Source: Methanotrichaceae archaeon
Lineage (GTDB): Archaea > Halobacteriota > Methanosarcinia > Methanotrichales > Methanotrichaceae
DNA length: 64,000 nt
Direction of reading: 5' to 3'
Assembly: GCA_963803145.1 (NCBI GenBank)
Contig: CAWDLW010000027.1
Location: 32,001-96,000 of the forward strand
In this document: positions 27,863 to 45,873 of the stretch, piece by piece
Layout of the letters: each line of letters starts with the position of its first letter
How positions within the stretch are numbered: position 1 is the first letter of the stretch
Translations under genes and position numbers: made by a program
Notes under the pieces: generated by a model
What the model was told of the DNA's origin: nothing
Seen by the model: the letters and a program-made list of their open reading frames with translations, nothing else
Database searches by the model: none

Positions 27863-28492
27863 ATGCATTTTAAAGACAGAAAGGAAGCCGGCAGGAGGCT
27901 TGCAGAGGCCCTTGCAGCCTACATTGGAAAAGACGTTATTATATATTCTCTTCCCCGAGGCGGCGTCGTGCTGGGATATGAGATAGCCAAGAAGCTGGGC
28001 GCTCCATTGGACCTTTTGATTACTAGAAAGATAGGCTATCCGGGAAACGAGGAGTGTGCCGTCTGTGCGGTCGCTGAAGATGGCGATATGATATGCGATC
28101 GCGCTGGAGTGGCTATGGTAGATCCGGAGTGGCTCGATGCCCAGGCAAAAAAAGAACGTGAGGAGGCAGTGAGGAGGAGACAGGTTTATCTCAAGGGCAG
28201 AGAGCCGCTTCCAGTTGATGGCAAGATAGCAATCATCGTTGATGACGGTGTTGCCACTGGTCTAACAATAATATTGGCTATAAGAGAGCTGAAGCATAGA
28301 AATCCTCAGAAGATCATAGTTGCAGTCCCTGTAGCATCTGAACAGGCAGCAGAGATCATTCGCCAGGAGGCTGATGAGCTAATTGCCTTGGACGTACCTG
28401 CATATTTCGCAGCTGTTGGCGCATATTATGAGAGCTTCCCACAGCTGACTGATGCTGAAGTCGTCAGGCTCATGGAGGAGGCCAGCAGCTGA
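27863..28492 (+). CDS. Phosphoribosyltransferase family protein
   Basis: FKDRKEAG, LPRGGV, IIVDDGVATG (PRPP loop) and AVGAYY. Confidence 0.92.
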   Translation: MHFKDRKEAGRRLAEALAAYIGKDVIIYSLPRGGVVLGYEIAKKLGAPLDLLITRKIGYPGNEECAVCAVAEDGDMICDRAGVAMVDPEWLDAQAKKEREEAVRRRQVYLKGREPLPVDGKIAIIVDDGVATGLTIILAIRELKHRNPQKIIVAVPVASEQAAEIIRQEADELIALDVPAYFAAVGAYYESFPQLTDAEVVRLMEEASS

Positions 28493-28888
28493 GAAGGCAG
28501 CAGTGTTGCTGCCGTCTTCGGGCGTTTTTATTACAGTACATAATATAGGGATATATTTTCAGGCTTTATTGGGATATGCTCTAATTTTACTTTCATTGAG
28601 ATATATAACCTATGATATACAAAATTGTTATTAAACTCATAAGATCTTTTTATAAGGATCGTATATTCATGTATACCTATTTATTGCAAGAAATATTTTA
28701 GGATCCAGAATATTGTATACAACCCACAGTTGTTTTTATTTGAGATTGGATAATTCTTAACTTAATTAGTGGATGATGTGTTATTAGTTAAGTTTCGCCG
28801 GATTTTATTAAAGATCAACGATGTGGTATGTTTTGCAAGATTTTGTAGATCTTGCAGGTAAAATGAATAAATATATAGGAGGCAAGTT

Positions 28889-29965
28889 ATGAGAGGTTTA
28901 ATATTAGCAGCCTTGGGTTTGCTGTTGCTCGTATCAGCAGCATCAGCAACAGGTAGCGGAAATGCAGTAATTTCTGAGGTGACACAGTCATCAACAGGAA
29001 CATGTATAGTAGGAGCCAACTTGGCTCAGGCTACAGTTCTGGATACCAACCTATTGGGCTGCGATAACTTAGTAGATCAGCAAATGTTTGTGACAGCTGA
29101 TGGTAACGACCTTATAGGCATGTCCAGCCTAATGGGTGAGGGCGGCGAGGGTGGCGAGGGCAACACAAGTGGTGAGGGCAGCGCAACTTCTGGAGAGATC
29201 GCAGATGAAGGCGAGTTCATGGGCATGAACTTCGTCCAGGGCGGCGAGATGGTATTCAACGCCACAGGATCCGATAACATCGGTTACCAGGATGTCGACC
29301 TCAATGCAAATGAAAACTGCCAGACATTCGGAAACTTCTCCCAGATGGGTATTCAGACAGCTGATGCTATTGGCTGCGATAATCTGATCTCCCAGGATAC
29401 CGACACCTATGCAGGAGTTATTCCAACGGCAGAGGGTGGCCCAATTGGCTCGCCCAACGACTTCGTAATGAGCAACACACAGCAGGCATCTCTCCTGAAT
29501 GTATGCACAGTAGGTGATGCAAACGATCTTGATCAGCATGCTGAGCAGGATCTCTTTGATAGCTGCGTGACCACATCCACACTCAGCCAGCAGGCTCTCC
29601 TCAACGCAGATGTATGGGGATGCGACAACACCAACGATGTTGAGGTTGGCCAGGGTGAGACAGATCACGGCCAGTCCTCTCTCCAGACCATAGACGACAG
29701 CAGTTTCCTCGGATCAGCTGTAGCTCAGGGTGTTAGCGAGAACGAGCAGGTTCTCGGAAGCGATAACGCCTTTGCTCAGTTTGGAAACACCTTGATCGAT
29801 GATAGCTGCTTCACCATGGGCACTGCATCCCAGAGCATTAGCGAGACATTTGCAACCGCAGGATGCGGCAACGCAGCAGACCAGGATGCAACACTCTCAA
29901 ATGTCGATAACTCCATAGTTGGCGGACGCCTTGCCCAGCAATCTACAATCGACACAAACCTCTAA
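28889..29965 (+). CDS. Secreted 35-aa-repeat beta-solenoid-like protein, paralogue 1 (divergent, Gly/Glu insert)
   Basis: Signal peptide ending ASA-TG; repeats with Q-x9-G-x2-N-x3-Q; RBS aggaggcaagttATG. Confidence 0.85.
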   Translation: MRGLILAALGLLLLVSAASATGSGNAVISEVTQSSTGTCIVGANLAQATVLDTNLLGCDNLVDQQMFVTADGNDLIGMSSLMGEGGEGGEGNTSGEGSATSGEIADEGEFMGMNFVQGGEMVFNATGSDNIGYQDVDLNANENCQTFGNFSQMGIQTADAIGCDNLISQDTDTYAGVIPTAEGGPIGSPNDFVMSNTQQASLLNVCTVGDANDLDQHAEQDLFDSCVTTSTLSQQALLNADVWGCDNTNDVEVGQGETDHGQSSLQTIDDSSFLGSAVAQGVSENEQVLGSDNAFAQFGNTLIDDSCFTMGTASQSISETFATAGCGNAADQDATLSNVDNSIVGGRLAQQSTIDTNL

Positions 29966-29982
29966 ATAAAACGAAGATAGAA

Positions 29983-30010
29983 TTAAGGCGAGAATCCGAT
30001 CTCGCCTTAA
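29983..30010 (+). terminator. Hairpin after paralogue 1
   Basis: ttaaggcgag-N8-ctcgccttaa. Confidence 0.75.
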
Positions 30011-30287
30011 ACAACTTTATTTAAGAACATTTGCATGATATCTAAATTTTTGGCGAAGCACTCTATTACTATTATTATCCTGAAGAAGGATAATTGAAGA
30101 ATGGCTATCTATACAGAGAATGTTTCTTCAATGGATATCTCTCATAGTCATCAAGTATCCCTTAAGCAACAATTACAGTTTGATAAAATTATAAATAAAC
30201 ATATACGTCTTCCCGAAATTATATCTGTTCGATTAATTATAATATTTGAAAAATTTAAAGAATTAATTGTCATCTATAAGAGCGGAA

Positions 30288-30454
30288 GATAAGTAATTTA
30301 TTTACAGGCAAATTGTACTTAACTCCTATATTGATGGCGTCTTCTTAATCAAATTTCTATTTATTTTTTAAATGAGTAAAGCTCAATTATTGATAGTGCT
30401 TCGCTATAATTCCTAGAACTTGTGAAGCATCTCGAAGAGATAAGGAGGCAAGCT
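30288..30454 (+). promoter_or_regulatory. Conserved promoter/leader of paralogue 2
   Basis: GATAAGTA...cttaa...tattgatggc...tcttaatcaaatttc...taaggaggcaag; repeated before paralogues 3-5. Confidence 0.75.
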
Positions 30455-31387
30455 ATGAAAACTCTAATAAAAATAGCCCTAGGCTTCTTGCTGCTGGTGT
30501 CAGCGGCTGCAGCCACAGGAAACTGGAACTGTGAGAATGTAAATATTTGTCAAGATGCAACAGGAAACTGTATCACAGGCGATGTCAATTTAGCCCAGAT
30601 AACAGATGCATCGTCGTTTGTCCTCGGCTCTGACAATTCAGTGGATCAGTGCATGGGCCTCAGCGCCGACGATAACTGCCTGACAGGCGTTGGAGAACAG
30701 TCCAACCTTTGCCAGAGAGGCGATTTGACTGCCAATGCAACAGGCTGCTATAACGATCTCGAGCAGGGAGTCGATTTCAGTGCCTACGAAAACTGCCTGA
30801 CTGATAGCAACATGACTCAGTGGGGCATGCAGGCGGGAGATGCCGTCGGTTCCTGTAACGATATTAGCCAGTATGCCGCAGCTGATGCCTGCGATAACTG
30901 CCTGACCATGAGCGATCAGAAGCAGATATCAGACTTCGAGGTATGCGCTACGGGCGATAGCAACTGTGTCGATCAGTGCCTCTACCAGGAAGCTTCGGAT
31001 AACTGTCTGACAACCTCCTGCCTCTGGCAGCAGACTGCCAAGGTAGTCGATATCCTTGGGTGCGATAATAGTGTCTACCAGGATAACAACCTCCAGTATG
31101 CAGATTATAACTGCATGACAGGCTCATTGTTGAACCAGGTAATCTGCGAGAATGCTCAGGTAACCGGCAGCTGCAACGAGGTTGATCAGGGAGCCTGCAG
31201 CGCGATGGAGACTGATGCATGCAACAACTGCCTGACCAATGCAGGAATGCTGCAGTCCATCAACAGCCAGGCCGTCGTAGAGGGCTGCAACAACTATGTC
31301 AATCATAATGTCTACCTCGACACAGATTGCAACAGTCTGACCGGCGGAATGCTGACACAGATGTCCACAATCAACTCCAACGACTAA
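30455..31387 (+). CDS. Secreted Cys-rich 35-aa-repeat protein, paralogue 2
   Basis: RBS-supported ATG at 30455; signal peptide; NC[LIM]T-initiated repeats; ends SND. Confidence 0.88.
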   Translation: MKTLIKIALGFLLLVSAAAATGNWNCENVNICQDATGNCITGDVNLAQITDASSFVLGSDNSVDQCMGLSADDNCLTGVGEQSNLCQRGDLTANATGCYNDLEQGVDFSAYENCLTDSNMTQWGMQAGDAVGSCNDISQYAAADACDNCLTMSDQKQISDFEVCATGDSNCVDQCLYQEASDNCLTTSCLWQQTAKVVDILGCDNSVYQDNNLQYADYNCMTGSLLNQVICENAQVTGSCNEVDQGACSAMETDACNNCLTNAGMLQSINSQAVVEGCNNYVNHNVYLDTDCNSLTGGMLTQMSTINSND

Positions 31388-31398
31388 ACTTGCAACGA

Positions 31399-31420
31399 AA
31401 GGCGAGGGTTTTCTCGCCTT
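31399..31420 (+). terminator. Hairpin after paralogue 2
   Basis: aaggcgag-ggtttt-ctcgcctt. Confidence 0.75.
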
Positions 31421-31592
31421 CAAAATTTATTTCTAGCATTTTGCAGTAACAGTTTAAAATTCATTAAATATCGTCTTCCAGATCTATCTACTTCTGAACT
31501 ACAGCATATTTAAGGATAAATTTTTGTACTTATTGAGATCCTAAGAACGATTACAAAAGAAAAAATATTCTATCGCGCTATTAGTAATATTA

Positions 31593-31759
31593 GATAAGTA
31601 TCTCAGTTACAATTAAAATTTTCTTAACTCTTGTATTGACGGCATCTTCTTAATCAAATTTCTATTTGTTTTTTAAAGGATTAACGCCCAATTAGTGTTA
31701 ATGCTTCGCTAGAGCTATTAGACCTTGCGAAGCGGTTGGGAAAAATAAGGAGGCAAGTT
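31593..31759 (+). promoter_or_regulatory. Conserved promoter/leader of paralogue 3
   Basis: GATAAGTA 167 nt upstream of the ATG, same internal motifs. Confidence 0.75.
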
Positions 31760-32719
31760 ATGAAAACTCTAATAAAAATAGCCCTAGGCTTCTTGCTGCT
31801 TGTGTCTGCAGCTGCAGCCACAGGTAACTTCAACAATGTGTACGTTGATATCTATGCAGAGGCAACGGGAAACTGTGTTTCAGGCAACGTTAATCTAGCT
31901 CAGATAACAGATGCTTCGGCGTTCGTCGAAGGGTCTTGCAATGATGTGTATCAGTGCTTAGGTACAGATGGCGAAGATGGATATGGCCTCTTTGCCGATG
32001 ATAACTGCCTGGCAGGAAACGGAAGACAGACAAACCTCATTCAGAGGGCTGATCTTATTGGAAACGCCACAGGCTGCAATAATTGCGTCAGTCAGGACCT
32101 CAACGATCTGGATGCAATTGATAACTGTGTAACGGACTCAAACTTGACTCAATGGTCAATTATGAAGGCTGACACCATAGGCTCCTGGAATGGAGTAGAT
32201 CAATGCACCGCATCCGATGCCTATGAAAACTGCCTGACATTGAGCGATCAGAAGCAGATGGCCGATTTTGATGCATGCACCACAGGTGATTACAATTGCG
32301 TTTCTCAAGACCTCTACCAGGATGCTTGCAATAACTGCGTGACAACCTCCTGCCTCTGGCAGCAGACCGCCAAGGTAGCCGATATCCTTGGGAGCTACAA
32401 TAGTGCCTACCAGGATAACAACCTCCAGTATGCAGATGATAACTGTCTGACGGGATCAGTATTGAACCAGATGATCTGCGATAGCGCTCAGATAACCGGC
32501 ACCTGCAATGAGGTTGATCAGGGATCTTGCAACGCGATTGAGACTGATGCCTGCAACAACTGCCTGACCAATGCAGGAATGCTTCAGTCCATCAATAGTA
32601 AGGCCCTCATAGCTGGCTGCAACAACTACGTCAATCACGAAGTCTACCTCGACACAGATTGCAACAGTCTGACCGGCGGAATGCTGTCCCAGATATCAAC
32701 AATCGTTTCCAACGACTAG
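31760..32719 (+). CDS. Secreted Cys-rich 35-aa-repeat protein, paralogue 3
   Basis: RBS-supported ATG at 31760; signal peptide identical to paralogue 2; ends SND. Confidence 0.88.
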   Translation: MKTLIKIALGFLLLVSAAAATGNFNNVYVDIYAEATGNCVSGNVNLAQITDASAFVEGSCNDVYQCLGTDGEDGYGLFADDNCLAGNGRQTNLIQRADLIGNATGCNNCVSQDLNDLDAIDNCVTDSNLTQWSIMKADTIGSWNGVDQCTASDAYENCLTLSDQKQMADFDACTTGDYNCVSQDLYQDACNNCVTTSCLWQQTAKVADILGSYNSAYQDNNLQYADDNCLTGSVLNQMICDSAQITGTCNEVDQGSCNAIETDACNNCLTNAGMLQSINSKALIAGCNNYVNHEVYLDTDCNSLTGGMLSQISTIVSND

Positions 32720-32730
32720 ACCTTTGATGA

Positions 32731-32753
32731 AAGGCGAGAGCTTCTCTCGCCTT
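32731..32753 (+). terminator. Hairpin after paralogue 3
   Basis: aaggcgagag-ctt-ctctcgcctt. Confidence 0.75.
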
Positions 32754-32845
32754 CAGAAATTTTAACATACTGTAGTTTACATCAATATCATGAATTTTGA
32801 ACATTGTCCTTCTTCAATATTTTGATATGGAATTGAAAAGCCGGT

Positions 32846-33011
32846 GATAAGTATTTCAGCTACAATTAGAATTTTCTTAATTTCCGTATTGATGGCATTT
32901 TCTTAAGCTAATTTCCCTTTATTTTATTAGAGAGCAAAGCCGTATAAGTGTTAGTGCTCTGCGGTTATTCCAAAACCCACGTAGCACTTAGGAAAAATAA
33001 GGAGGCAAGTC
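32846..33011 (+). promoter_or_regulatory. Conserved promoter/leader of paralogue 4
   Basis: GATAAGTA 166 nt upstream of the ATG. Confidence 0.72.
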
Positions 33012-33932
33012 ATGAGAAATCTTTTATTAATAGCCTTGGGCTTCTTAATGCTCGTATCAGCAGCAGCAGCCACAGGCAACTGTAACGATGTTTACACAAG
33101 CATTTATCAAGAGGCATCAGGAAATTGCATCACGGGCGATGTCAATTTAGCCCAGATAACAGATGCATCGTCGTTTGTCCTCGGCTCTAATAATGAAGTG
33201 GATCAGTGCATGGGCCTCAGCGCCGACGATAACTGCCTGACAGGCGTTGGAGAACAGACCAACCTCTGCCAGAGAGGCGATATGACAGGCAATGCAACGG
33301 GCTGCTACAATGATCTTGACCAGGAACTCGATTTGAATGCCTACTGCAACGATCTGACGAACAGCAACATGACTCAGTGGGGCATACAGGCTGGAGATGC
33401 AATCGGTAACTGTAACGAGTTTGATCAGTGCGCCGAAGCCGATGCCTGGTTTAACTGTCTCACCATGAGCGATCAGAAGCAGCTTTCGGACTTCAATGTA
33501 TGCGCGACAGGCGATAACAACTATGTCGATCAGAACCTCTATCAGGAGGCCGATGCTAACTGCCTGACGGGCTCCGAGCTCTGGCAGCAGACAGCCAAGG
33601 TAGCAGATATCCTTGGGTGCGACAACGAAGTCTATCAGGATTGCAACTACCAGTATGCAGATTGTAACTGCCTGACAGGCTCCATGCTGAACCAGATAAT
33701 TTGCGAGAACGCTCAGGTAACCGGCAACTGCAACTATGCCAATCAGGATTCCGAGACAGATGCCTTCAATAACTGCATGACAGGCGCAGGCATGCTGCAG
33801 ACCATCAGTGAGCAGGCTGTCATGGAGGGCTGCAACAACAATATCAATCAGAATGTCTATCTCAATACTGATAGCGATTGCCTGACCGGCGGAATGCTGA
33901 CCCAGTCGTCCTCAATAGTCTCCAACGACTAA
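33012..33932 (+). CDS. Secreted Cys-rich 35-aa-repeat protein, paralogue 4
   Basis: Signal peptide; most regular repeats; ends SND. Confidence 0.88.
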   Translation: MRNLLLIALGFLMLVSAAAATGNCNDVYTSIYQEASGNCITGDVNLAQITDASSFVLGSNNEVDQCMGLSADDNCLTGVGEQTNLCQRGDMTGNATGCYNDLDQELDLNAYCNDLTNSNMTQWGIQAGDAIGNCNEFDQCAEADAWFNCLTMSDQKQLSDFNVCATGDNNYVDQNLYQEADANCLTGSELWQQTAKVADILGCDNEVYQDCNYQYADCNCLTGSMLNQIICENAQVTGNCNYANQDSETDAFNNCMTGAGMLQTISEQAVMEGCNNNINQNVYLNTDSDCLTGGMLTQSSSIVSND

Positions 33933-33943
33933 ACACTCATAAA

Positions 33944-33968
33944 GAAAGGCGAGAGAAACCTCGCTTTC
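33944..33968 (+). terminator. Hairpin after paralogue 4
   Basis: gaaaggcgag...ctcgctttc. Confidence 0.7.
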
Positions 33969-34089
33969 AAAATTTTATTAGCTGTCTTTATCCTTTTTTC
34001 TCTACATAGCGTTCAAAGGTTAAATGTTTTATACAGTTTAGAAGTCTTGACAGAATGCCATAAGAAGATATTTATTGATTATAACAGCA

Positions 34090-34255
34090 GATAAGTACGG
34101 CTATTACTGTAAAGATTCTCTTAATCCTCTTATTGATAACGGTTTCTAAACCAAGTTTCCTTAAAACTTATAAAAGAAGCAAGCAATGTTAATGTTAATG
34201 TTCCGCTAGAGCTTTCAGCTCTTGCAGAACAATGGGAAAAATAAGGAGGCAAGTT
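34090..34255 (+). promoter_or_regulatory. Conserved promoter/leader of paralogue 5
   Basis: GATAAGTA 166 nt upstream of the ATG. Confidence 0.7.
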
Positions 34256-35290
34256 ATGAAAGGTCCTATATTAGCACTGTGCTTGCTGCTGCTAGTGTCT
34301 GCGGCAGGTGCAACAGGAAGCTATAATTGTGTAAATGTATACGGTAGTCAAGAAGTGTCAGGAAACTGTCTTACTGGAGCTGCTTTTGCCCAAGTAACTA
34401 ATGTAGATGCCAATCTATTGGGCACCAACATTGATGCTACCCAGTTCCTGGGCCTTCAGGCAAATGATAACTGTATAACAGGAAGCAATAACGGCGAGAC
34501 TAACTTCATCCAGGCCGGCGATATGGTAGCCAATGATACAGGCTGCAATGACTTTGATCTTCAGGCTGAGCTTTTGGCTGCGAACGAGAACTGCCTAACT
34601 ACAGGAAACATTACTCAGATTGCCGCACAGCATGCAGATACTGCAGGCAGCGACAACTATGTAGTCCAGGCAACAGCTGCCGCATTAGGTACAGTCGATC
34701 TCCCATGCTTCTGCCTAGGCAGCCCCAACTGTGTGACGAATAGCGATCTTAGCCAGCTATCTGCATTGAATGCATGCGTTACAGGCACCGATAACCTTGC
34801 AGCTCAGGTAGCTCTGCAGGGCACCTTCGACAACTGCCTGACCAACAGCGTTTACTACCAGCAGGCATCTCTCAACGCCGATATTCTCGGATGCAACAAC
34901 AACGGCATCTGCTTTGATGGAGCCGGATCCTATGTTGACACTATGGATAGCGTAGTTGGACCTTACTCAGATGGCACAGGCATATGCCTGCCGATACAGG
35001 TCAGTGTCCAGTACACAGATGATAACTGTGTGACAGATTCTCTGTTCAACCAGATGAACTGCATGGATGAACAGGTGACAGGAGAATGCAACAGTGTTGG
35101 CCAGTTCGCCCTTTCCGGTGTATCTTATGACTGCTTGACAGCAGGCAGCTTGCTCCAGATGAGCAACTTTAAGGCTGCAGAACTCGGATGCAACAATGCT
35201 ATCGGCCAATCCATCGAACTCAATAACGCTTGCAACAGCATAACTGGCGGCAATATTATCCAGCAGGCTACAGCCAATACCAACGATTAA
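34256..35290 (+). CDS. Secreted Cys-rich 35-aa-repeat protein, paralogue 5 (loop insertions)
   Basis: RBS-supported ATG at 34256; signal peptide; ends TND. Confidence 0.87.
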   Translation: MKGPILALCLLLLVSAAGATGSYNCVNVYGSQEVSGNCLTGAAFAQVTNVDANLLGTNIDATQFLGLQANDNCITGSNNGETNFIQAGDMVANDTGCNDFDLQAELLAANENCLTTGNITQIAAQHADTAGSDNYVVQATAAALGTVDLPCFCLGSPNCVTNSDLSQLSALNACVTGTDNLAAQVALQGTFDNCLTNSVYYQQASLNADILGCNNNGICFDGAGSYVDTMDSVVGPYSDGTGICLPIQVSVQYTDDNCVTDSLFNQMNCMDEQVTGECNSVGQFALSGVSYDCLTAGSLLQMSNFKAAELGCNNAIGQSIELNNACNSITGGNIIQQATANTND

Positions 35291-35501: not shown

Positions 35502-36684
35502 GTGCAGCATAACACAAGTTTTTTATCCTAGCAAGTCCTTATGATCGCTAATCATGTCGAGGAAAACAATATTCGTCGTAAAATTGACAGATGAGGATCG
35601 GGAATATCTGAACCAGTTTATTCGCCATGGAAAGGCATCTGTAAGAAGCGTGACTCGTGCCAGGACACTGCTCATGGCAGACGAAGGTTACTCCAATAAA
35701 GATATCGTAAAGATTCTAAAAATAACCAGACCTACGGTTAACAGTGCAAGGAAAAGGTACTGCCAGGAAGGTTTGGACTCTGCAATAAACGATAAACCAA
35801 GAAGCGGCGCACCTCCAAAGATAGATGGAAGGATTGAGACACAAGTTACCCTTCTTGCCTGTTCGAAACCACCGGAAGGCAAATCGACCTGGACTCTGAA
35901 GCTTTTAGCCGATAGGCTCGTGGAAATGGAGGTAATAGAATCCATATCTACCATGACCGTTCAGAGGATCTTAAAAAAAGCGAGACCAAGCCTTGGCAGA
36001 AGGTTAGATGGTGTATTGGCGAGATAACAAGCGATTACATCATGCATATGGAAGATGTGCTGGATCAATATGAGCAACCCTATGATCCTAAGCATCCTTT
36101 AATCTGCATGGATGAGATGCCATGCCAATTGATAGACAACGTTTTAGTTCCTATTCCTCCTAAACCTGGAAAATCACAAAAAGTCGATTTTGAATATCGC
36201 CGTAATGGTACATGCTGTGTTTTCATCGCCTTTGATCCACATGCCCGTTGGAGAACAATATCTGTTGAAGAACACCGGACGAAAATTGATTATGCCCATT
36301 TTATGAAAGGGCTTTCCCAGAAATATCCTGAGGCAGAATACCTTAAAGTTGTCCAGGATAACCTTAACACTCACTCATCTGGTTCATTTTATGAAGCATT
36401 CTCGCCTGAGGAGGCGTTCCAGCTTGCCAAGAAGTTTGAGTTCCATTTTACTCCAAAGAAGGGTAGTTGGCTTAACATGGCTGAGATTGAGTTCTCGGCT
36501 CTTTCAAGGCAATGCTTGAACCGACGAATTGGCGATATCAAAACTTTAGCCAAGGAAGCGAAAGCTTGGGAACAGGATCGGAACAGGGCTAAAGTAGCTA
36601 TTCGATGGAAGTTCACCAAAGCCAATGCAAGAGAGAAGTTCTGTAGGCATTACCTTAAGATAAAGAATTAATGTTATGATGTAC
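35502..36684 (+). mobile_element. IS630-family insertion sequence
   Basis: TIRs gtgcagcataaca / tgttatgatgtac; TA duplication at 35500-35501 and 36685-36686. Confidence 0.92.
35554..36671 (+). CDS. IS630 transposase, two ORFs joined by a -1 frameshift
   Basis: HTH ORF plus DDE ORF (CMDE, VQDNLNTH, SWLNMAEIE); A7G slippery site at ~35973-35980. Confidence 0.9.
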
Positions 36685-38026
36685 TAGGTATGACCATATT
36701 GATGGGGCTACAAAGATTGACGCGAAGGTGCCCGTGATCAGACCCACGAATATGGCTAATGAGAACATCTGCAAAGGTTCTGCACCGAAGAAGTACAGAC
36801 ATCCTGCACCAATTACAACGATTCCCACTGTATAGATGGAACGAGTGAACACTTGCTTTACGCTTTGGTCCATGATCTCTGTTGGGTTCCATCCATTAGT
36901 CAGTCCTGAGTTTTCCCTTACGCGGTCGAATACGACTACGACTTCATTTGCTGCGTATCCTATAACGGTAAGCATCGCAGCAATGTAAGTGACATCAATT
37001 TCCAACTTAAAGATAGAGAAAACGCTAAGGAGGAATAGACCCACAGAAACGATACCGATTGTTGCAGCGGTGGCAATCCTCCAGTTGAATCTGAGAGTGA
37101 TGAAGATGAACATTGCTACTACTGCGAGGAATACTGAGATTATCGCTTTCATGGCGAGTTGCTGCGCAACGCTTGGATCTGAGGTGTTCTCTATATATGC
37201 CACGCCTTCGCCGTAGTTTTCTTTGAAGGCATTAACTACGGTTGTGATCTGTTCGTGGGTCAATACACTATCAAAACGAGCTGCGATTTGATTTGAATCA
37301 GTACCTCCAATGGCCACAGTTGCAGCGGGTATTCCTGCATCTTCCATGATGGATGTAGCATTCTCTTGATCGATGGCAGCCGGGAGAGTCACATCGAGGG
37401 CAGTCCCTGCCTTGAAATCAATATCGTAGTTAAAGGATGACAAGGCGATGCTCCCCATGCCTGCGATCAATATCAGTGAGGTAGCGATCAAGATAATATT
37501 TCGATGTCCCAGGATGTTCAGACCCATAGGCAGACTGGGGCTCTTGATTATATCCTTTAGCTCAATGGCGCCGGAGAAGCTATCCTGGTTAAAGACGAAG
37601 AGGCGCATCAATAACCGTGCAAGGAAGACGTTACTAACAAAGCTGGCAATTATGCTCAAGATCATAGTCAGGGCAAAACCTCTGATGGGGCCTATTCCCA
37701 TGGCAAAGAGGACAATTGCTCCGATTATGATAGTGATGTTAGAATCGAATATTGTGCGTAACGAAGATGCATAGCTGTTCTTCAGGGCTTTTACCTCGCG
37801 CTCCAGCTCCTTCGTGCAAACGCTGGTTACCGCAAATATTTCCACTTTTCTTCTTAAGTTGCGGCTAGGTAAAAACAAGATAAAGGAAAAATATCGCCGC
37901 TAAAATATAGACCAAATATTTCGCCAGGAAAATTATTAAGATATCGCAAATAACAGATTGTCCCAATAAATTATGCAAGATTGAAAATAGGTTTGCGTCA
38001 ATCTGCATAATAAACTGGATATGTGA

Positions 38027-39274
38027 TTATTTCAGCTTAGCCAATAATGCCTCAAGCGAAGACTTGCAGGTGGCGGCATTTGGATTTACGGCGCGGACTT
38101 GCCGCAATACCTGATCGATGGCGGTATCGATTTCCGTCCATTTGGTCGGATTCATCGGTTTCAAGCGAGCTTCGGAATTGTCCCATTCGTATTCCAGATC
38201 ATTGACCCGGGTTTTTGCGCCCGACAAATTGTTGGCGTTCACAAAACCAAGCGTATCCTGGGTTATCGTCTTAAAAACCGTCAAATCACCCAAAGGCGAT
38301 GATGCCGGACCGGATGAATTATCTGCTTGCGATAGAATATTTGCCTTGGCCTGGACCGCTGAATTGCACCAACAGTAGCCGGATACTGAAACAACCAACA
38401 GCAAACAAATAACGGTTGCAGTTTGCCAAATCGCAGGAATGCGTTGCGGTTTAATTTCCACCTCGCCAACTGACGGTTTGGCAATTAAATCCTTTTTGGT
38501 GATCGAAAGGAAAAGGACTGTTGTCAGGATTGCTCCAGTAAATATGAAAGTAGTAACCGTCGCTCCAAGACCCAATCCCCCGTATTTTTGGGATTGTGAC
38601 AGAAAATCTCCCATGGAAGCACCCAGCGGCCGTGTCATAATGTAAATAATCCAAAACGCCAGAACGGAATCCAAACCCATTTTCCAACCGATGGCAAAGA
38701 ATGCAACCGTTGCGACGACAATCACGCCGGTAGTTAAATAGCCAAGACCAAGACGTTCAGCCATCAAATCGCCGGACGCTGTTCCTAGCGCAAATGTAAA
38801 AAGAATTGCAAGCCAATAAAATGCTTCTCTTTGCCTTGTAAAGATTGAATGGATGGAAAGCGTTTTTTCCTTGGCATACCAAATGGCAAAAGTTATTGCC
38901 AGCAAAATGCTGAAAGCTATCGTGCTCAACTCAAGAGGTACATGCATGGCATCGCTTAAATTATCCGTTACCAAAGTGCCAAAGATGCTAATCAAGACCA
39001 CTGTTATCCAATAGATTCCGGGAATGTATCTCTTTGCCCTAAATTGGAAAAATAGCGCAATCAACAATAAAATCCCCATTACAATGGAAGTACCGGTCAA
39101 GCCAAAATTCAAATTAACGTTCAAGAAATCCGATGCGGTTTCGCCAACCGTGGTACAAAGGACTTTGATGACCCAGAAGTAAAGGGTGATTTCCGGAACT
39201 TTGCTTAACAACTCCCTTCCCGCCTCGAAGAAAATCCTTGATTGATTATCTATTGTGTTCATTTTCGTATCCAC
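38027..39274 (-). CDS. COG4705/DUF347-repeat membrane protein with C-terminal helical domain
   Basis: SKVPEITLYFWVIKVLCTTVGETASD, FALGTASGD and IMTRPLGASMGD. Confidence 0.88.
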   Translation of the reverse strand: MDTKMNTIDNQSRIFFEAGRELLSKVPEITLYFWVIKVLCTTVGETASDFLNVNLNFGLTGTSIVMGILLLIALFFQFRAKRYIPGIYWITVVLISIFGTLVTDNLSDAMHVPLELSTIAFSILLAITFAIWYAKEKTLSIHSIFTRQREAFYWLAILFTFALGTASGDLMAERLGLGYLTTGVIVVATVAFFAIGWKMGLDSVLAFWIIYIMTRPLGASMGDFLSQSQKYGGLGLGATVTTFIFTGAILTTVLFLSITKKDLIAKPSVGEVEIKPQRIPAIWQTATVICLLLVVSVSGYCWCNSAVQAKANILSQADNSSGPASSPLGDLTVFKTITQDTLGFVNANNLSGAKTRVNDLEYEWDNSEARLKPMNPTKWTEIDTAIDQVLRQVRAVNPNAATCKSSLEALLAKLK

Positions 39275-39833
39275 CTTTGAAATCCCAAGCCGATTCTTAT
39301 GTTTTGCACGAGAGACGGGCTAGTGAATATGATTACTGTTGATATTATTGCAACTATCAATATGTCAGCCCATATTTGGGATGATTTCTTCATAAAAGTT
39401 ACACACGGAATTTTAAATAAAATCTTTATGGCGCAAGCTATGGATTATAGAGCAAAGTGTGTATTATTAAGCACATTATTAATTATTATGTGTTAATTTG
39501 ATAAAATACACAGCAAATTAAAGATTTCGCTAATCGGAAGTTGAATTTTAGGTAAGGTCTCAGAGCTTGTATAGAGGATTTCAGCCTAGAACCAATTAAC
39601 GCTGCCTCGCTGGCAAAATAGAAGGCATGATAGCTTCAAGTGGAAAGAAGTTGATTGTGTTGGCCATAGCCATTGAATCCCTGCCCTCGTAATACTTTAT
39701 GATGACATTACATATGATATAGCATATTCTAATTATATTATCTTATTTTAATATTATAAATATTGAAATTAATAATAAAGTCCATAGTTTGCTTCATAAA
39801 GGCTATAACCGATAATGAAAATGGGCTTAAATT

Positions 39834-40181
39834 GTGTATGGAATCAATATCATATCCTGGCTAACGGCTGCGTCAGTGCCATTAGCTCCGAGCGATATTG
39901 GGCTTGAACCCCACGAGGAAACCGAACTGATACTCTGGTTACTTGCAGCCGTGATATCAATAGTTCCTATTGTGGTCTTCTTCGTGAGCTATCTCAGAGT
40001 AAGAAAAACGGTGCTTTTAATAGCAACTTCCGCGTTCTTCATCTTCTTCTTAAAGGCGATGATTTTGGCAATGAAACTATTCATGCCCTATTACGTGGAT
40101 GAGTTCTGGTGGTCGGTTGCTGCGATTTTGGATATCATAATGATAAGTCTCGTTGCCTTTTCCTTAAGTAAGAAGGCATAG
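39834..40181 (+). CDS. Small 3-TM membrane protein paired with a wHTH regulator
   Basis: Hydrophobic helices; 4 nt upstream of the regulator. Confidence 0.7.
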   Translation: MYGINIISWLTAASVPLAPSDIGLEPHEETELILWLLAAVISIVPIVVFFVSYLRVRKTVLLIATSAFFIFFLKAMILAMKLFMPYYVDEFWWSVAAILDIIMISLVAFSLSKKA

Positions 40182-40185
40182 ACAA

Positions 40186-40707
40186 ATGCAAGATGACACC
40201 GTACTTGAGAATAGAAGATTAATCTTTGAGTACATATCAAATAATCCGGGTACTCATCAGAGAAGGATATCAAGAGACCTTGATATGCATTACAGTACCC
40301 TAAGGTACCATCTAGACTATCTTGAGGAAAAGGGCATAATCGTAAGCCAAATGGAAGATAATCTAAAAATATATTTTGCATCAGGAAAGCTTAGTGCTAA
40401 TGAAAAGAAGCTGACAACGTTGCTTCAGCAGAAGAGATTTCGTGATATCATCCTAGTTGTAATCGATAACCCAGGTTCGACATCTTCTCAAATATCAGAT
40501 AAGCTCTCGGTGAAATCCACGACCATCTCAAAATACATGAATATCCTGGAAGACCGAGGAGTACTCTATCATGTGAAAACAGGAAGGGAGAAACGATATT
40601 TCATTAATGATGAAAAGAGCATCATCGGACTCTTGATGACTTATAAAAAATCCTTTTTGGATTCCTTCGTGGATAACGTTTTAATCCTTTATTTGGAAAG
40701 AGAGTAG
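40186..40707 (+). CDS. Tandem winged-helix transcriptional regulator (archaeal ArsR-like)
   Basis: Two NPG...wHTH repeats (STLRYHLDYLE; TTISKYMNILE). Confidence 0.85.
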   Translation: MQDDTVLENRRLIFEYISNNPGTHQRRISRDLDMHYSTLRYHLDYLEEKGIIVSQMEDNLKIYFASGKLSANEKKLTTLLQQKRFRDIILVVIDNPGSTSSQISDKLSVKSTTISKYMNILEDRGVLYHVKTGREKRYFINDEKSIIGLLMTYKKSFLDSFVDNVLILYLERE

Positions 40708-40823
40708 TCAATAATTCATCATAGTTCACATTTTGCTCCATAGTTCATGATTTGCGTCAGAAAATACTTATACACTAGCTCCAAAGTTGTTGCTCGTGGG
40801 GAAACCACGTGTGAGGAATAATA

Positions 40824-41315
40824 ATGAATCGATCTTTAAAATATGGATTAGTACTACTTTGTGTGTTTGTAGCGCTATCTGTGGGGAATGTTTTTGGAGA
40901 GAAGAGCACATCTGCTAGCACAGTGGCACAATCTAATTCTCTTAGCGCGATAAAGGCCGGATCAAATGCAGATGCAGCTGATGCCAATTCGGCCGTTATT
41001 AATAGCGTTACTTATAGCAAGACAAGCCAATCGGTGGAGATCAAAAATAATGAGACTTCAGCTCTGGATTTAACGGGCTGGAAGCTGGAGGTACAGAATA
41101 AGACAGTATATACCTTCCCAAAGTATACGCTTGATGTAAACGCTACAGTTAAAGTTCACTCAGGATTGGGTATGAATAATAAGACAGACCTCTTTGCTGG
41201 CGCTACTTTATTAACTAACGCAAACGATGAGGCATCCTTACTGGATACGACTGGAAGTGTGATAAGCACCTCTGAGGAATCCAAAGAAGCATCAGATAGT
41301 CCTAATGATGCTTAG
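40824..41315 (+). CDS. Secreted lamin-tail-domain protein
   Basis: Signal peptide; VEIKN...LDLTGWKL...YTFP...VKVHSG. Confidence 0.8.
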   Translation: MNRSLKYGLVLLCVFVALSVGNVFGEKSTSASTVAQSNSLSAIKAGSNADAADANSAVINSVTYSKTSQSVEIKNNETSALDLTGWKLEVQNKTVYTFPKYTLDVNATVKVHSGLGMNNKTDLFAGATLLTNANDEASLLDTTGSVISTSEESKEASDSPNDA

Positions 41316-41373
41316 CTGATACATCTCTGGCACCGGAAATATTTTTTTAAGCCGCAAAGAGAGGTATCATAAT

Positions 41374-41985
41374 ATGAATAAAAAAGTGGCCATCATTTTC
41401 ATCCTTACCCTGGCAGCTCTCGGTTACTTGACCTACTACTCGTTCGGGCCATCTTCGACCACAAATATTGGCCCACAGGTTAATCCAGAGTCACTGAAAC
41501 CTACACAAACAACCGCGGTGTCTCAAAATAATGAAACCCTTAACGTCTATCATAACAAGGATATTGCTGAGAATTTTTATACAATAAGTATTCCACAGTC
41601 CTGGCAGAATTCGTCCTCCACGCCTCGTGCCGGAGAGTATGATTTCATTTTCAGCGATGGAGCTGCAAGAGTCGAGCTAATGGACGTACCGGATAACAGC
41701 ACCCTTGAGCTTTTCGTATTAAGCCAGGAAGAACCCCAACTCAAAAACCTGCTTACCGGCTATAAACGAATTGATTATCAAAAATTGAATATAAGCGGCA
41801 ATGATGCCTATCAGCTTACCTACCTCAGCGATGTAAATGGCACTAAATTTGAGAGTATTAGAACATATATCGCAGGTTCTGATCAAGCTGCCGTTATCAC
41901 ATTCTCGCTTCAGGAAACAATGGCTGCATCGAAGAAGAATACATTCAGTCTTGTAATCAATAGTTTCTCATGGGAGAATAAATAA
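41374..41985 (+). CDS. Membrane-anchored PsbP/DcrB-like protein
   Basis: N-terminal anchor; ISIPQSW, ISGNDAYQLTY and VINSF. Confidence 0.6.
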   Translation: MNKKVAIIFILTLAALGYLTYYSFGPSSTTNIGPQVNPESLKPTQTTAVSQNNETLNVYHNKDIAENFYTISIPQSWQNSSSTPRAGEYDFIFSDGAARVELMDVPDNSTLELFVLSQEEPQLKNLLTGYKRIDYQKLNISGNDAYQLTYLSDVNGTKFESIRTYIAGSDQAAVITFSLQETMAASKKNTFSLVINSFSWENK

Positions 41986-41986
41986 C

Positions 41987-42181
41987 ATGAGACAAATTCT
42001 TCTTTTTATATCGCTTGTGGTGCTTTGCTTTGGTCTTTACCTGAAGTTATTCTACGATGTCCCAGACAGCCAGGAAAAAATCAATTTTTTCGTTAGCGGG
42101 TTTTTCATTATTATTGGTATTTCAAGCTTGCTGGTGAATCTCTTTTGGGACACTAAGAAAAAGAGAAAGAATGGGGAGTGA
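41987..42181 (+). CDS. Small 2-TM membrane protein
   Basis: Operonic spacing; two hydrophobic helices. Confidence 0.65.
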   Translation: MRQILLFISLVVLCFGLYLKLFYDVPDSQEKINFFVSGFFIIIGISSLLVNLFWDTKKKRKNGE

Positions 42182-42927
42182 AGGACCTGACCGATATAAT
42201 CGTTGCAGAAAACGTGAGCAAGTCGTATGGAGATAGAAAGGCTGTTGACGCCCTGACACTTCATATACAAGAGGGAGAAATCTTCGGATTCCTTGGACCA
42301 AACGGCGCTGGAAAAACGACAACCATAAGACTGCTCACAGGAATTCTTAAGCCGGATCAAGGCGAAGTAGCAATCGATCAACACTCATTATCGCAGCAGA
42401 GGAGAGAAGTTGCACAGGTGATAGGTGTCATCCCTGAAAGCCGCGGTCTATATAATTGGATGACTGCAACCGAATATCTCTCTTTCTTTGGGCATCTTTA
42501 CGGATTGAAAGAAGAATTGCTGGCAGAACTCGTTGAAGCTCTTCTTTCGCAAGTTGGACTCTTGAAGAGAAAGCACTCGGTGATCGGCACATTCTCCCTA
42601 GGAATGCGACAGCGTTTGGGGCTTGCTCGGGCGCTCATCAACAGTCCGAAAATCCTTTTTCTTGATGAGCCGACTCTTGGTCTTGATCCACAGGGTCAGG
42701 AGGATATTCAGAAATTGCTCAAAAAACTCAATGGCGAGGGTGTGACCATCTTTCTCTCGTCCCATCTCTTAAATGAGGTTTCTGATCTTTGCTCTCGTTT
42801 AGGAATCATCAATAACGGAAAGCTAGTAGCTGAAGGGACGATTGATGAACTTGGAAAAATGACCAATCTCCCAGGTGGAACACTAACTCAAATCTTCTTA
42901 CGTCTAACCGGCGAAGGAGTTGAATAA
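42178..42927 (+). CDS. ABC-2 type exporter ATP-binding subunit
   Basis: GPNGAGKTT, FSLGMRQR, LDEPTLGLD and SSH. Confidence 0.95.
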   Translation: MKDLTDIIVAENVSKSYGDRKAVDALTLHIQEGEIFGFLGPNGAGKTTTIRLLTGILKPDQGEVAIDQHSLSQQRREVAQVIGVIPESRGLYNWMTATEYLSFFGHLYGLKEELLAELVEALLSQVGLLKRKHSVIGTFSLGMRQRLGLARALINSPKILFLDEPTLGLDPQGQEDIQKLLKKLNGEGVTIFLSSHLLNEVSDLCSRLGIINNGKLVAEGTIDELGKMTNLPGGTLTQIFLRLTGEGVE

Positions 42928-42958
42928 GGTGTTCAAATATATTTGGAGAAAAGAATTA

Positions 42959-44356
42959 CTGTACTCTCCAAGTTTCTCACCAATTTATAATCTCCATTCT
43001 ATATCAAGTCATATCTTATATCCCTGTTCTCTGATTAGATAGAGTAAACCACTATCAGGAACTGGCAAATTAAAGTATTGTAATACATATATAAAGGCAT
43101 CAATGAATGCTTGAGCCTTTATACTATCTATCATATCTCCAATCGTTCTATTTTGTTGATTTCTTTCCACTGGTGGGTTTTTGAGTTCATATAAAACGAT
43201 AGCTGTCCAGACTGAGAAAACCATCTGAATAAATCTTTCAATTGATCGTTTTCCTCTTAATTGATAATCCTTGAATCCCAATTTTTGATTTGACTCTCTA
43301 TGAGCAGTCTCAATATCCCACCTATCCTCATAAATAGAAAGGATTTCTACCAAAGATAGTGAACAATTGGTGCTAATAAAGTAGTTGGCGTCACCATTTT
43401 TCTTTTTCTTTGAGATGACTAGCTTTACTTTGCCAATCTTATCTAAGATGACTTCTTTTTCGATTGCATAATATACCTTCTTCTTGCCGCGAACTTGGAC
43501 TGTAGTTCTTCTATAATAAATTTCGTCAATCTGATTTGCCAAGTCCCTGACCTGAAAGGACATATCCTTATTTATCCATACCTTTTTATCAGACTTAATT
43601 TCACAAACGACTTGATGACCTAAGTTCAGGCATTTAGTTATAAAATCAGCAGAAAACCACCAGCTGTCGAAAACAACATAAAGACTCAAGCCTTTTGGTA
43701 TTTTTAAGGGCTCGATGATATCTTTATAAGCGATTTCTATTTTAGTCATGAAATCTTCACTGCTGTCTATCTCTTTAGTATACATTTTTGCTTTATGTGG
43801 TATAAATATACCTCTAGATTGGAGGACTGAGGTAACAAAGTTGTTACCCATAATATAGTCATCTTTGCAATGATCGTAAAACTTGCCCACGCCATCAGTA
43901 CATTTCCCTTCCTTTTCATTATATGTATCGTCTATAATTAATAATATTTTGTCGCTTGCACTTAACTGAAGAGCTTCTATAAATAGATCCGCACTGCGCT
44001 GAGCTACTTCGTTCTCATCCCAGATTGCATCACTAAAGAACCAATTATAGGAAGAGCGTGATTTCGTACATTCTCGATCCTTTGCCATAGCATCACTAAG
44101 GTGTGCGATGGTCTTAGATTTATCACATACGCTCAGTGCTGAAATCATATCACAGAAAGAATTATAGCTCGGTATGGTGAATAAATCTTTAAATTCTTTT
44201 AGAAATGGCTCTAACTGTAATGGAATCTTAACTAATTTGATCATGACATAGTAAAATACTTTTATAAATAAATCTATTTTGTATCAAGAATTAATTTTAA
44301 TGGTAAAAGAAAATATAGCTATAAATATAAAGCTATGAAAAAGTTGGAGAGTACAG
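42959..44356 (-). mobile_element. IS701-family insertion sequence in the permease 5' end
   Basis: TIRs ctgtactctccaa / ttggagagtacag; 8-bp TSD AAGAATTA at 42951-42958 and 44357-44364. Confidence 0.92.
43009..44244 (-). CDS. IS701-family DDE transposase
   Basis: IIDDT, VFDSWW and YEDRWDIETAHRESNQKLG. Confidence 0.88.
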   Translation of the reverse strand: MIKLVKIPLQLEPFLKEFKDLFTIPSYNSFCDMISALSVCDKSKTIAHLSDAMAKDRECTKSRSSYNWFFSDAIWDENEVAQRSADLFIEALQLSASDKILLIIDDTYNEKEGKCTDGVGKFYDHCKDDYIMGNNFVTSVLQSRGIFIPHKAKMYTKEIDSSEDFMTKIEIAYKDIIEPLKIPKGLSLYVVFDSWWFSADFITKCLNLGHQVVCEIKSDKKVWINKDMSFQVRDLANQIDEIYYRRTTVQVRGKKKVYYAIEKEVILDKIGKVKLVISKKKKNGDANYFISTNCSLSLVEILSIYEDRWDIETAHRESNQKLGFKDYQLRGKRSIERFIQMVFSVWTAIVLYELKNPPVERNQQNRTIGDMIDSIKAQAFIDAFIYVLQYFNLPVPDSGLLYLIREQGYKI

Positions 44357-45637: not shown

Positions 45638-45873
45638 TTGCTTCCTCATCTTCTAATATATTAACTACAAAGGGGCCAATAGTGAAATCAATAGTTGAAT
45701 ACTTAAAGCATAAACCAAGCTTAAAGGGGCAACTCTTTGATCAGGGGGAGTTGAAACGTCTGGCTAGAGTATGCGGCCTGAGCCCGGAGGGGGCTCGAAG
45801 TGAATTGAGGAAGCAAGGCTTAATCCTAACCAAGAACGATCACGGAATCGCCATTTGGAAAAGATGTGGTTAA
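45634..45873 (+). CDS. Small hypothetical protein (possible HTH)
   Basis: ATGA overlap with the upstream gene. Confidence 0.45.
   Translation: MIASSSSNILTTKGPIVKSIVEYLKHKPSLKGQLFDQGELKRLARVCGLSPEGARSELRKQGLILTKNDHGIAIWKRCG

Follow-up and report, generated by a model that had tools for sequence, protein, structure and literature searches.

A family of secreted repeat proteins from Methanotrichaceae with a predicted uncapped beta-solenoid fold and possible end-to-end assembly

Background

What is made by five adjacent archaeal genes that each encode a signal peptide followed almost entirely by copies of one 35-amino-acid (aa) repeat, and what might the products do outside the cell? The question is raised by a tandem array on contig CAWDLW010000027.1 from a methane-producing member of the family Methanotrichaceae. 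We analyzed a 64,000-nucleotide (nt) stretch of this contig, called here the window; coordinates are positions within it, and the array lies entirely on its + strand. We conclude that the array proteins and their relatives are very probably secreted, uncapped beta-solenoids. On balance, we also favor the reading that they are self-stacking fiber subunits, an archaeal analogue of curli and Fap fibers that would need Sec export only.

To our knowledge, secreted beta-solenoid fibers such as curli and Fap have so far been bacterial and are accompanied by elaborate outer-membrane machinery. The only archaeal amyloid-like envelope proteins that we know to have been described are the SH sheath proteins, which have an antiparallel, ring-forming design. 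A preliminary annotation made from the letters of the window (hereafter, the original prediction) had described the array as a candidate curli/Fap-like, Cys-reinforced fiber system. In this report, we examine the repeat, the fold, the chain ends, the relatives, the cysteines and the surroundings of the array genes.

Five tandem genes for secreted repeat proteins

The array comprises the following genes, in which dN/dS is the ratio of nonsynonymous to synonymous substitution rates and the first coordinate of each line is the true ATG.

28889..29965, + strand: paralog 1, 358 aa, p1 subtype, 9 Cys, acidic Gly/Glu insert at residues 82-109
30455..31387, + strand: paralog 2, 310 aa, p2-4 subtype, 25 Cys, start assigned from the Shine-Dalgarno (SD) motif
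31760..32719, + strand: paralog 3, 319 aa, p2-4 subtype, 22 Cys, start assigned from the SD motif, dN/dS 0.22-0.29
33012..33932, + strand: paralog 4, 306 aa, p2-4 subtype, 21 Cys, reference for the structure models
34256..35290, + strand: paralog 5, 344 aa, p5 subtype, 19 Cys in the mature chain, insert of about 30 aa

The five tandem paralogs with signal peptides that had been proposed were thus recovered as five same-strand open reading frames (ORFs). Their products align over the full length, with 38-42% identity to paralog 1 and a mean column identity of 59%, and each consists of a signal peptide and about eight 35-aa repeats. The signal peptide and its A-x-A cleavage site were read by eye from the sequence rather than taken from a predictor, and values for mature chains below are predicted accordingly. 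The signal peptide (residues 1-21 in paralog 4) is the most conserved segment of the family, with a mean pairwise identity of 0.62 versus 0.35-0.45 for the repeat units, or rungs. Positions S16, A18, A20 and G22 (paralog 4 numbering) are invariant or nearly so, which is unusual for Sec signal peptides.

The repeat is far from a chance pattern. The motif G-x2-[ND]-x3-[QH] occurs 32 times in the five proteins, versus a mean of 2.15 (maximum 8) in 1000 shuffles, and 17 of the spacings between occurrences are 35-36 residues, versus a mean of 0.003 (maximum 1). The originally proposed consensus, N-C-[LIM]-T-x-S-x3-Q-x9-G-x2-N-x3-Q-x8, was reproduced over 117 units from 19 proteins. Among these units, the commonest residues are N1 (52%), C2 (37%, with S at 17%), L3 (44%), T4 (55%), S6 (50%), Q10 (94%), A16 (52%), C21 (32%, with S at 39%) and V25 (53%); G20, N23 and Q27 are fixed by the anchoring motif with which the units were cut.

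The predicted mature chains have 286-338 aa, or 29-35 kDa by length. For paralogs 1 to 5, they contain 9, 25, 22, 21 and 19 Cys; 49, 39, 39, 41 and 32 Asp plus Glu; 1, 3, 6, 3 and 1 Lys plus Arg; and 3, 0, 0, 0 and 4 Pro. Asn plus Gln make up 16-22% of residues and Phe, Trp and Tyr 4.7-6.6%, and the net charge is -31 to -48. The composition therefore agrees with the earlier description of acidic, Asn/Gln-rich chains nearly free of Lys and Arg and, in paralogs 2-4, free of Pro. Likewise, no catalytic domain was matched in Pfam or NCBIfam for the five proteins, and there is no C-terminal membrane anchor, as the chains end within the last repeat.

Predicted fold

An AlphaFold2 model of paralog 4 from a 19-row alignment (mean predicted local distance difference test score, pLDDT, 91.8; predicted template modeling score, pTM, 0.87) is all-beta with a repeating three-strand pattern. 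Paralog 1, modeled from a 33-row alignment (pLDDT 84.1, pTM 0.82), gave the same solenoid, with loops 82-109 and 252-258 disordered. Projected onto the repeat, the models place a short strand at positions 2-4, a long strand at 7-19, a turn at G20-x-x-N23 and a second long strand at 24-35. The paralog 4 model has no cap: its strands span residues 26 to 305 of 306. The predicted structure is a parallel beta-solenoid with unusually long, flat rungs.

Conserved repeat positions alternate, with even positions conserved from 4 to 18 and odd positions from 25 to 35 and at 1 and 3. Because of this alternation, we infer that the core-facing side chains include Gln10 and Gln27. Asp reaches 41% at repeat position 26 and 17-19% at positions 28-34, so that the outward side of the second long strand is probably acidic. 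The G-x-x-N turn and the Asn/Gln columns of the original prediction are thus borne out in silico by the paralog 4 model and the unit consensus.

Comparisons with solved structures place the model among parallel beta-helices. A Foldseek search of the Protein Data Bank (PDB) with the model gave no match at E<=0.001 (template modeling scores 0.07-0.18), and the best score in a search of the ESM Atlas was 0.77, below the level of a lead. VIA-align, in contrast to Foldseek, aligned the model best with SufB/SufD-type flattened parallel beta-helices (Z 19.9-20.8, root-mean-square deviation [rmsd] 2.6-4.6 A, 231-244 residues, 6-11% identity). The curli subunit CsgA (8c50_A) was fifth-best (Z 17.4, rmsd 8.1 A, 187 residues, 19% identity; Z 15.2 in a second search), and pectate-lyase-type helices followed at Z 11-14. 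The solenoid fold proposed for the array is therefore supported in silico both by the two AlphaFold2 models and by these alignments.

SufB and SufD share with the model a flattened parallel beta-helix of similar rung size and are its best geometric match. Unlike them, the array proteins match no SufBD model in Pfam, have only 6-11% identity to them and comprise just the helix, preceded by a signal peptide, whereas SufB and SufD are cytoplasmic and are complexed with SufC in the matched entries. The likeness is one of common fold, not of common function.

Predicted end-to-end assembly

The computed register of the chain ends is the same across the family. The C-terminus lies eight residues past the last Gln10, at repeat position 18, in 28 of 33 rows by a regular-expression search; the five rows outside the expression (four misses and one mis-trimmed) show the same register by eye. 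The mis-trimmed row retains the 10-aa read-through of the ribosome-binding site and is short of its final 9 residues, with no effect seen in the results. At the other end, A-x-A is followed within two residues by G-x-x-N in 30 of the 33 rows (regular expression). A single residue separates the invariant A-x-A from the turn, which puts the predicted mature N-terminus at repeat position 19. With ends at positions 19 and 18, the length of the mature chain is therefore an integral number of rungs, and the cut falls immediately ahead of the turn. One layer can thus be filled jointly by a subunit's C-terminal half-rung and the N-terminal half-rung of the next subunit.

A two-copy model of paralog 4 (residues 22-306) stacks the subunits head to tail, as had been anticipated in the original prediction of self-association. 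Its interaction prediction score from aligned errors (ipSAE) is 0.53 (runs 0.53, 0.54 and 0.51), versus 0.00 for the best of three controls; the runs agree in at least 89% of contacts, and the partner pLDDT is at least 82. Residues 269 and 271-306 of copy 1 contact residues 22-63 of copy 2 in register (278:27, 284:33, 291:40). The ipSAE mark applied is reached by 20 of 30 solved one-chain pairs and by 1 of 23 solved single chains, a calibration that is roughly valid here, where a custom alignment was used. This in silico result favors head-to-tail stacking, short of proof.

The mode of assembly that we propose begins with export of the subunits by the Sec system and predicted removal of the signal peptide after the invariant A-x-A. 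The mature chain would be a flattened parallel beta-solenoid of eight 35-residue rungs, in which Gln10, Asn23 and Gln27 form stacked columns. With no cap at either end, half-rungs of successive subunits would fill one layer, and the solenoid would continue from subunit to subunit without a seam. Outside the cell, the subunits would thus self-assemble into cross-beta ribbons or fibers, serving as matrix, surface or sheath-associated material. This mode would resemble that of curli and Fap but would have evolved independently, and Sec alone would suffice because there is no outer membrane. The three subtypes (p1, p5 and p2-4) may act as major and minor subunits, and the strongly acidic face probably needs or binds cations.

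In the paralog 4 model, but not in that of paralog 1, the signal peptide is drawn as a strand in the vacant half-rung. It is a speculation that, before cleavage, the signal peptide fills this half-rung as a built-in cap against intracellular polymerization.

Several considerations weigh against a fiber. All of the evidence for it is computational, and end-to-end stacking may be what structure predictors produce for any solenoid that lacks caps. Conservation hardly rises toward the chain ends: pairwise identity is 0.39-0.45 in terminal rungs and 0.35-0.40 in internal ones, a smaller difference than would be expected of an interface dedicated to assembly. Each subunit has a net charge of -31 to -48, which works against self-association if no cations are bound, and the seamless register depends on a cleavage site that is itself predicted. 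Neither a cell anchor nor a nucleator is evident for the array proteins. Also, with matches in 23 of the order's 105 genomes, and in 1 of 59 in the largest genus, the family is too patchily distributed to be a core envelope component.

Some of these points would also fit soluble or surface-adsorbed beta-helix proteins that do not polymerize, such as adhesins or binders of cations, trace metals or minerals, with the stacking being an artifact of the predictor. Most solved proteins of the fold are indeed monomers or form lateral dimers (the match lists are filled by SufB/SufD, lyases, tailspikes and adhesins), and the extreme net charge and the near-equal conservation of terminal and internal rungs are what such proteins might show; the variation in the number of paralogs and in Cys content recalls that of surface-protein families. 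However, neither the paralog 4 nor the paralog 1 model has a capping element at either end. The end half-rungs would expose core residues in a monomer, and their complementary register is fixed across the family. Moreover, the two-copy model passes its controls, and the proteins have no loops or pockets suggesting a ligand site and almost no Lys or Arg. We regard non-polymerizing proteins as unlikely, though worth taking seriously.

If the fiber reading is confirmed, the family would represent an independent archaeal invention of a self-stacking solenoid fiber that needs Sec export alone and has a seam-free joint, as well as a minimal model for controlled amyloid assembly. In methanogenic granules and digesters, it would be a candidate for a factor in matrix formation or aggregation, and it would offer an attractive scaffold for materials with regular thiol and carboxylate arrays.

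Family and distribution

Searches for known families were empty. With the five proteins, Pfam at E<=1 gave no match above a curated cut-off and NCBIfam gave none at all, and none of 33 family members matched a Pfam model at E<=0.01. The family profile had no match among PDB sequences at E<=10. These negative results agree with the original prediction that the proteins are not members of a characterized family. DUF6048 in Pfam (E 0.028, 14.7 bits versus a cut-off of 27) and phycoerythrin in single-sequence PDB searches (E 0.15-0.81) were taken as chance matches.

Relatives do exist. A word-indexed search of 5.8 billion proteins found 11, for which the sole source name is "hypothetical protein [Methanotrichaceae archaeon]". 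An exhaustive profile search of 1.84 billion representatives yielded 74 matches at E<=0.001, 55 at <=1e-10 and 38 at <=1e-30. One match, P0073 (E 2.3e-6), is a eukaryotic Ki-67/FHA protein and is false, and the weakest matches of this search are unreliable. Our literature searches found no description of such proteins.

The genome carrying the array holds exactly ten paralogs, the other five being on contigs C16, C44, C8 (two copies) and C42. In a maximum-likelihood tree of 35 rows, the array genes fall into three old clades, each including orthologs from other sources, with supports of 100/100 for p1, 100/99 for p5 and 100/98 for p2-p4. Paralog 2 shares 75% identity with paralog 4 and 83% with the C16 copy (dN/dS 0.31-0.33), and an ortholog of paralog 5 in a genome of the same genus is 68% identical (dN/dS 0.29). 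In all ten gene pairs tested, dN/dS was 0.22-0.39; the copies are therefore maintained by selection. The proteins constitute a real, selected and previously undescribed family.

The family is patchily distributed. Of the order's 105 genomes, 23 had a match, and these represent 11 of its 16 genera; the largest genus, with 59 genomes, contributes a single one. At E<=1e-50, matches occur in seven genomes of the order (G000, G001, G002, G003, G004, G007 and G013), with coverage in G002 confined to profile positions 1-129. Across a phylum-wide sample, a match was present in 9 of 12 Methanotrichaceae genomes, versus 0 of 388 from other families, and among viral contigs there was one pattern match and no relative. 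Among the genomes searched, the family is found only in Methanotrichaceae.

The proteins matched weakly in other genera lack Cys, are 242-246 aa long and have rungs of about 30 aa. P0069 (251 aa, of the same Cys-free kind) is related to the family at 97% hhalign probability. Two single-copy genes of this kind from other Methanotrichaceae genera are as follows.

L020:4765-5493 and L022:5000-5740, - strand: Cys-free relatives, single copy, 242-246 aa

The Cys-free branch has the motif G-N-x-V-[ST]-Q-S-A-x-N-A-A-V-V-V-G-x-N-N-x-V-x-Q. By eye it is the most curlin-looking part of the family, yet it does not match the Curlin repeat at E<=10.

The distribution bears on a further alternative, that the proteins are accessory parts of a Methanothrix-type sheath or of its spacer plugs, docked onto amyloid-like SH rings by beta-edge pairing and disulfides instead of forming free fibers. 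All members of the host's family are reported to carry SH sheath genes (PMC11576556), sheath hoops are reportedly disulfide-linked, and the plug and assembly proteins are described as unknown (PMC11576556, PMC10593813). The array paralogs, being secreted, Cys-rich and anchorless, could suit such a role. Against this, 82 of the order's 105 genomes, including 58 of the 59 in its largest genus, have no family match, and several paralogs have just 1-5 Cys. In addition, no SH-like gene was identified beside the arrays, in an inspection made without an SH seed to search with. A sheath accessory is, in our estimation, rather improbable.

Comparison with curli, Fap and sheath proteins

Like the curli subunits CsgA and CsgB, the array proteins are secreted and consist almost wholly of imperfect repeats; their models are uncapped solenoids with Gln/Asn columns and predicted end-to-end elongation. 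Also as in curli, several paralogous subunit types are encoded side by side. The differences are substantial, however. Curlin rungs are reported as roughly 20 aa (PMC6242892), whereas a rung of the array family has 35 aa and three strands, two of them of about 13 and 12 residues and the third short. The array family is also far more acidic and partly Cys-rich, its host is an archaeon, and no CsgG pore or CsgC/E/F-type gene is present among 20 neighboring proteins.

FapC is described as a beta-solenoid of imperfect repeats with conserved Asn/Gln hydrogen-bond columns (PMC12822426). It almost invariably has three repeats, which form Greek-key layers with long flexible linkers between them, and it depends on FapA, D, E and F (PMC12822426). 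The array proteins resemble FapC and FapB in being repeat-built beta-solenoids with Asn/Gln columns, and Fap likewise has paralogous major and minor subunits. Unlike Fap, they have eight contiguous rungs, no linkers, no accessory genes nearby and no sequence match. FapC is absent among the Foldseek and VIA-align matches listed, which does not exclude a family outside those lists. SH sheath proteins are likewise missing there; according to the data statement in PMC10593813, they have no PDB entry.

SH sheath proteins of Methanothrix and Methanospirillum (Medvedeva et al. 2024; Wang et al. 2023) are reported to have a signal peptide, a length of 150-350 aa and multi-copy gene clusters (PMC11576556). 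Their core has six beta-arches and two beta-sheets, each of them with six antiparallel strands, and forms rings (PMC10593813). The array proteins share with them the organism group, signal peptide, size, tandem clusters, a two-sheet beta-arch architecture and the lack of conserved assembly genes nearby. By these descriptions, they are nonetheless set apart from SH proteins, in that they are predicted to be parallel in-register solenoids of direct repeats, which would form straight stacks. SH genes are also reported in all Methanotrichales (PMC11576556), as opposed to 23 of 105 genomes of the order for the array family. MspA of Methanothrix thermoacetophila (M. thermophila; ABK14853.1) is described as a protein of 60.9 kDa with two Cys and 10.7% aromatic residues (PMC6242892, PMC10470525). 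Compared by description only, the array proteins differ in having 29-35 kDa, 9-25 Cys and 4.7-6.6% aromatic residues.

These resemblances raise the question of whether the array proteins are divergent members of a described family, namely SH sheath proteins, MspA (ABK14853.1), or curlin/FapC. What they have in common with SH proteins (signal peptide, 150-350 aa, clusters and two-sheet beta-arches; PMC11576556) and with curli and Fap (Asn/Gln columns and a solenoid; PMC12822426), together with the fifth-best structural match to CsgA, could be read as kinship. However, the sheets of SH proteins are antiparallel (PMC10593813), whereas about 235 residues of the paralog 4 model superimpose on parallel beta-helices with an rmsd of about 3 A, and MspA is set apart by its described size, Cys count and aromatic content. 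The sequence searches also speak against membership: in addition to the empty Pfam and PDB results above (0/33 members at E<=0.01 and 0 profile matches at E<=10, respectively), Curlin_rpt gave no match at E<=10 for 5 distant family members, alignment of the family profile with E. coli CsgA by hhalign gave a probability of 0.06%, and BLASTP of a distant family member against CsgA gave E 0.54. We therefore consider membership in any of these families very improbable. The label "curli/Fap-like" in the original prediction holds only as an analogy of architecture; homology was undetected by Curlin_rpt and hhalign.

Cysteines

Cys residues are concentrated at repeat positions 2 (37%) and 21 (32%), where they mainly alternate with Ser; the two positions are at opposite rung ends. 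Counts per paralog are 25, 22, 21, 20, 18 and 9 for the array genes and the C16 copy and 1-5 for the remaining four paralogs of the genome, and natural variants range from nearly Cys-free to 8.6% Cys. In the maximum-likelihood tree, Cys-poor clades are nested among Cys-rich ones. We conclude that Cys at positions 2 and 21 was added in particular lineages and is dispensable for the fold.

Covariation of Cys is strongest between a repeat position and its counterpart in the next rung but one (r 0.87 for rungs 4-6 and 5-7), which fits an old two-rung super-repeat. No pair in adjacent rungs is among the top 25 by covariation, in a test that relatedness confounds. A disulfide ladder between neighboring rungs is thus unsupported, and reinforcement by Cys, previously proposed for the family, is not a family-wide property, given the same-genome paralogs with 1-5 Cys and the nested Cys-poor clades. 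Possible roles of the Cys residues are free thiol rows, intermolecular cross-links or the binding of thiophilic metals.

A more elaborate idea concerns the Cys-rich branch. In a sulfidic, metal-limited habitat, extracellular cross-beta ribbons with continuous thiol rows along their edges (one thiol per rung), next to an acidic face, might bind Fe, Ni or Co or seed iron-sulfur chains, giving a metal-harvesting or even electron-conducting filament; the signal peptide might cap the subunits until it is cleaved. We consider this combination a long shot. We know of no surface multihaem cytochromes in Methanothrix relatives. If the idea were true, a thiol-row filament would be a possible missing route for direct interspecies electron uptake in these organisms. 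Metal binding or electron transport by envelope-associated proteins of Methanothrix relatives thus becomes a testable question.

Gene starts and cassette structure

Each array gene has the organization of a separate cassette, as judged from its flanking sequences: a promoter-like box, an SD motif, the coding region and a terminator-like hairpin. The elements, located by upstream alignment, motif search and RNA folding, are as follows.

28797..28813, + strand: AT-rich promoter-like (TATA-type) box of paralog 1 (upstream alignment)
30358-30374, 31663-31679, 32916-32932, 34160-34176, + strand: AT-rich promoter-like boxes of paralogs 2-5 (upstream alignment)
28877..28891, + strand: SD motif plus start codon of paralog 1, AGGAGGCAAGTTATG (upstream alignment, motif search)
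30443-30457, 31748-31762, 33000-33014, 34244-34258, + strand: SD 15-mers of paralogs 2-5 (motif search)
29987..30005, + strand: terminator-like hairpin of paralog 1, GGCGAG-loop-CTCGC followed by a T-rich run (RNA folding)
31401-31417, 32733-32750, 33948-33964, 35318-35336, + strand: terminator-like hairpins of paralogs 2-5 (RNA folding)

The 15-mer AGGAGGCAAGyyATG has five matches in the window, all at the five genes, and none in 100 shuffles; in the 4.13-megabase genome it has seven, every one ahead of a family gene. It marks the true ATGs. Three starts in the original prediction (30422, 31736 and 34232) are upstream alternative start codons in the same open frames and were replaced. Because the invariant 15-mer precedes each gene, the apparent N-terminal extension "IRRQVM" is the SD motif read in frame.

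The AT-rich boxes lie 76-81 nt 5' of each ATG, with a conserved block of about 46 nt ahead of each box, and presumably act as promoters. Folding energies of the terminator-like hairpins are -10.4 to -16.9 kcal/mol (z -2.3 to -6.6).

The presumed 5' untranslated region (5' UTR) has an inverted repeat (for example, GCTTCGC...GCGAAGC) after the AT-rich box and ahead of the SD motif, at 28809-28891 and at equivalent places before each family gene. Across 12 leaders of paralogs and orthologs, seven of the eight predicted pairs show a double change, with a consensus energy of just -2.3 kcal/mol. This inverted repeat may be an mRNA-stability or regulatory stem.

Locus and neighboring genes

The array is flanked by the following features.

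27863..28492, + strand: phosphoribosyltransferase-domain protein, upstream neighbor (Pfam Pribosyltran, 1.6e-17)
35554..48012, no strand assigned: block of about 12.5 kb, rich in insertion sequences (IS), that splits the array from its ancestral downstream neighbors (Pfam, synteny)
35554-36671 and 45975-46980: IS630-like pairs of HTH_32 then DDE_3, with DDE_3 in a different frame, as in programmed frameshifting (Pfam)
43009-44244: DDE transposase, DDE_5/ISC1217-like (Pfam)
48117-50015, + strand: 632-aa TPR protein without a signal peptide (Pfam)
50092-50568, + strand: DUF6125 protein without a signal peptide (Pfam)

Copies of the phosphoribosyltransferase gene that are 70-71% identical adjoin family genes in two genomes of another genus. 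This gene marks the ancestral locus, and we claim no functional tie between it and the array. A TPR gene with 86% identity lies directly downstream of the array in a genome of the same genus, and the pair of TPR and DUF6125 genes adjoins family genes in two further genomes, making three other genomes in all. Because both upstream and downstream neighbors are conserved beside family genes elsewhere, the array is ancestral at this site. By Pfam, the inserted block also holds a SecD/SecF-like fragment, DUF347, parts of ABC transporters, and LTD and PAP2 proteins.

Pfam scans of 20 neighboring proteins detected no family of pores, chaperones or nucleators, and none is conserved in six related loci. 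The earlier statement that no CsgG/FapF-type gene lies nearby therefore stands for these 20 proteins.

Other features of the window are recorded here for completeness. Within the inserted block, a 407-aa ORF at 36655-37878 (- strand) has a SecD_SecF_C domain (4.7e-48), and its 3' end overlaps the end of an IS630-like element by 17 nt. Its N-terminal part resembles the end of a SecD moiety, and it may be a SecDF gene that was truncated or rearranged by insertion. Farther upstream, a stretch at about 14000-24000 has a GC content of 0.35-0.40, versus 0.42-0.49 around it. This stretch, possibly an integrated element, encodes a tyrosine integrase (19614-20639, Phage_integrase 7.3e-31) as well as a pentapeptide-repeat protein (20790-21944).

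Two overlapping ORFs on the + strand, 25900-26517 and 26475-27074, have no Pfam or NCBIfam match. The first has a signal-peptide-like N-terminus, and the second encodes about five Cys-rich repeats, C-E-x-N-P-x-C-Q-W-V-N-G-Q-C-x-C, and a Pro/Asn-rich tail; together they may be one secreted gene with a frameshift. A DUF7282 protein (24694-25704) and a Lamin-tail-domain protein (40824-41315) are probable surface proteins near the array, the neighborhood of which is rich in exported proteins.

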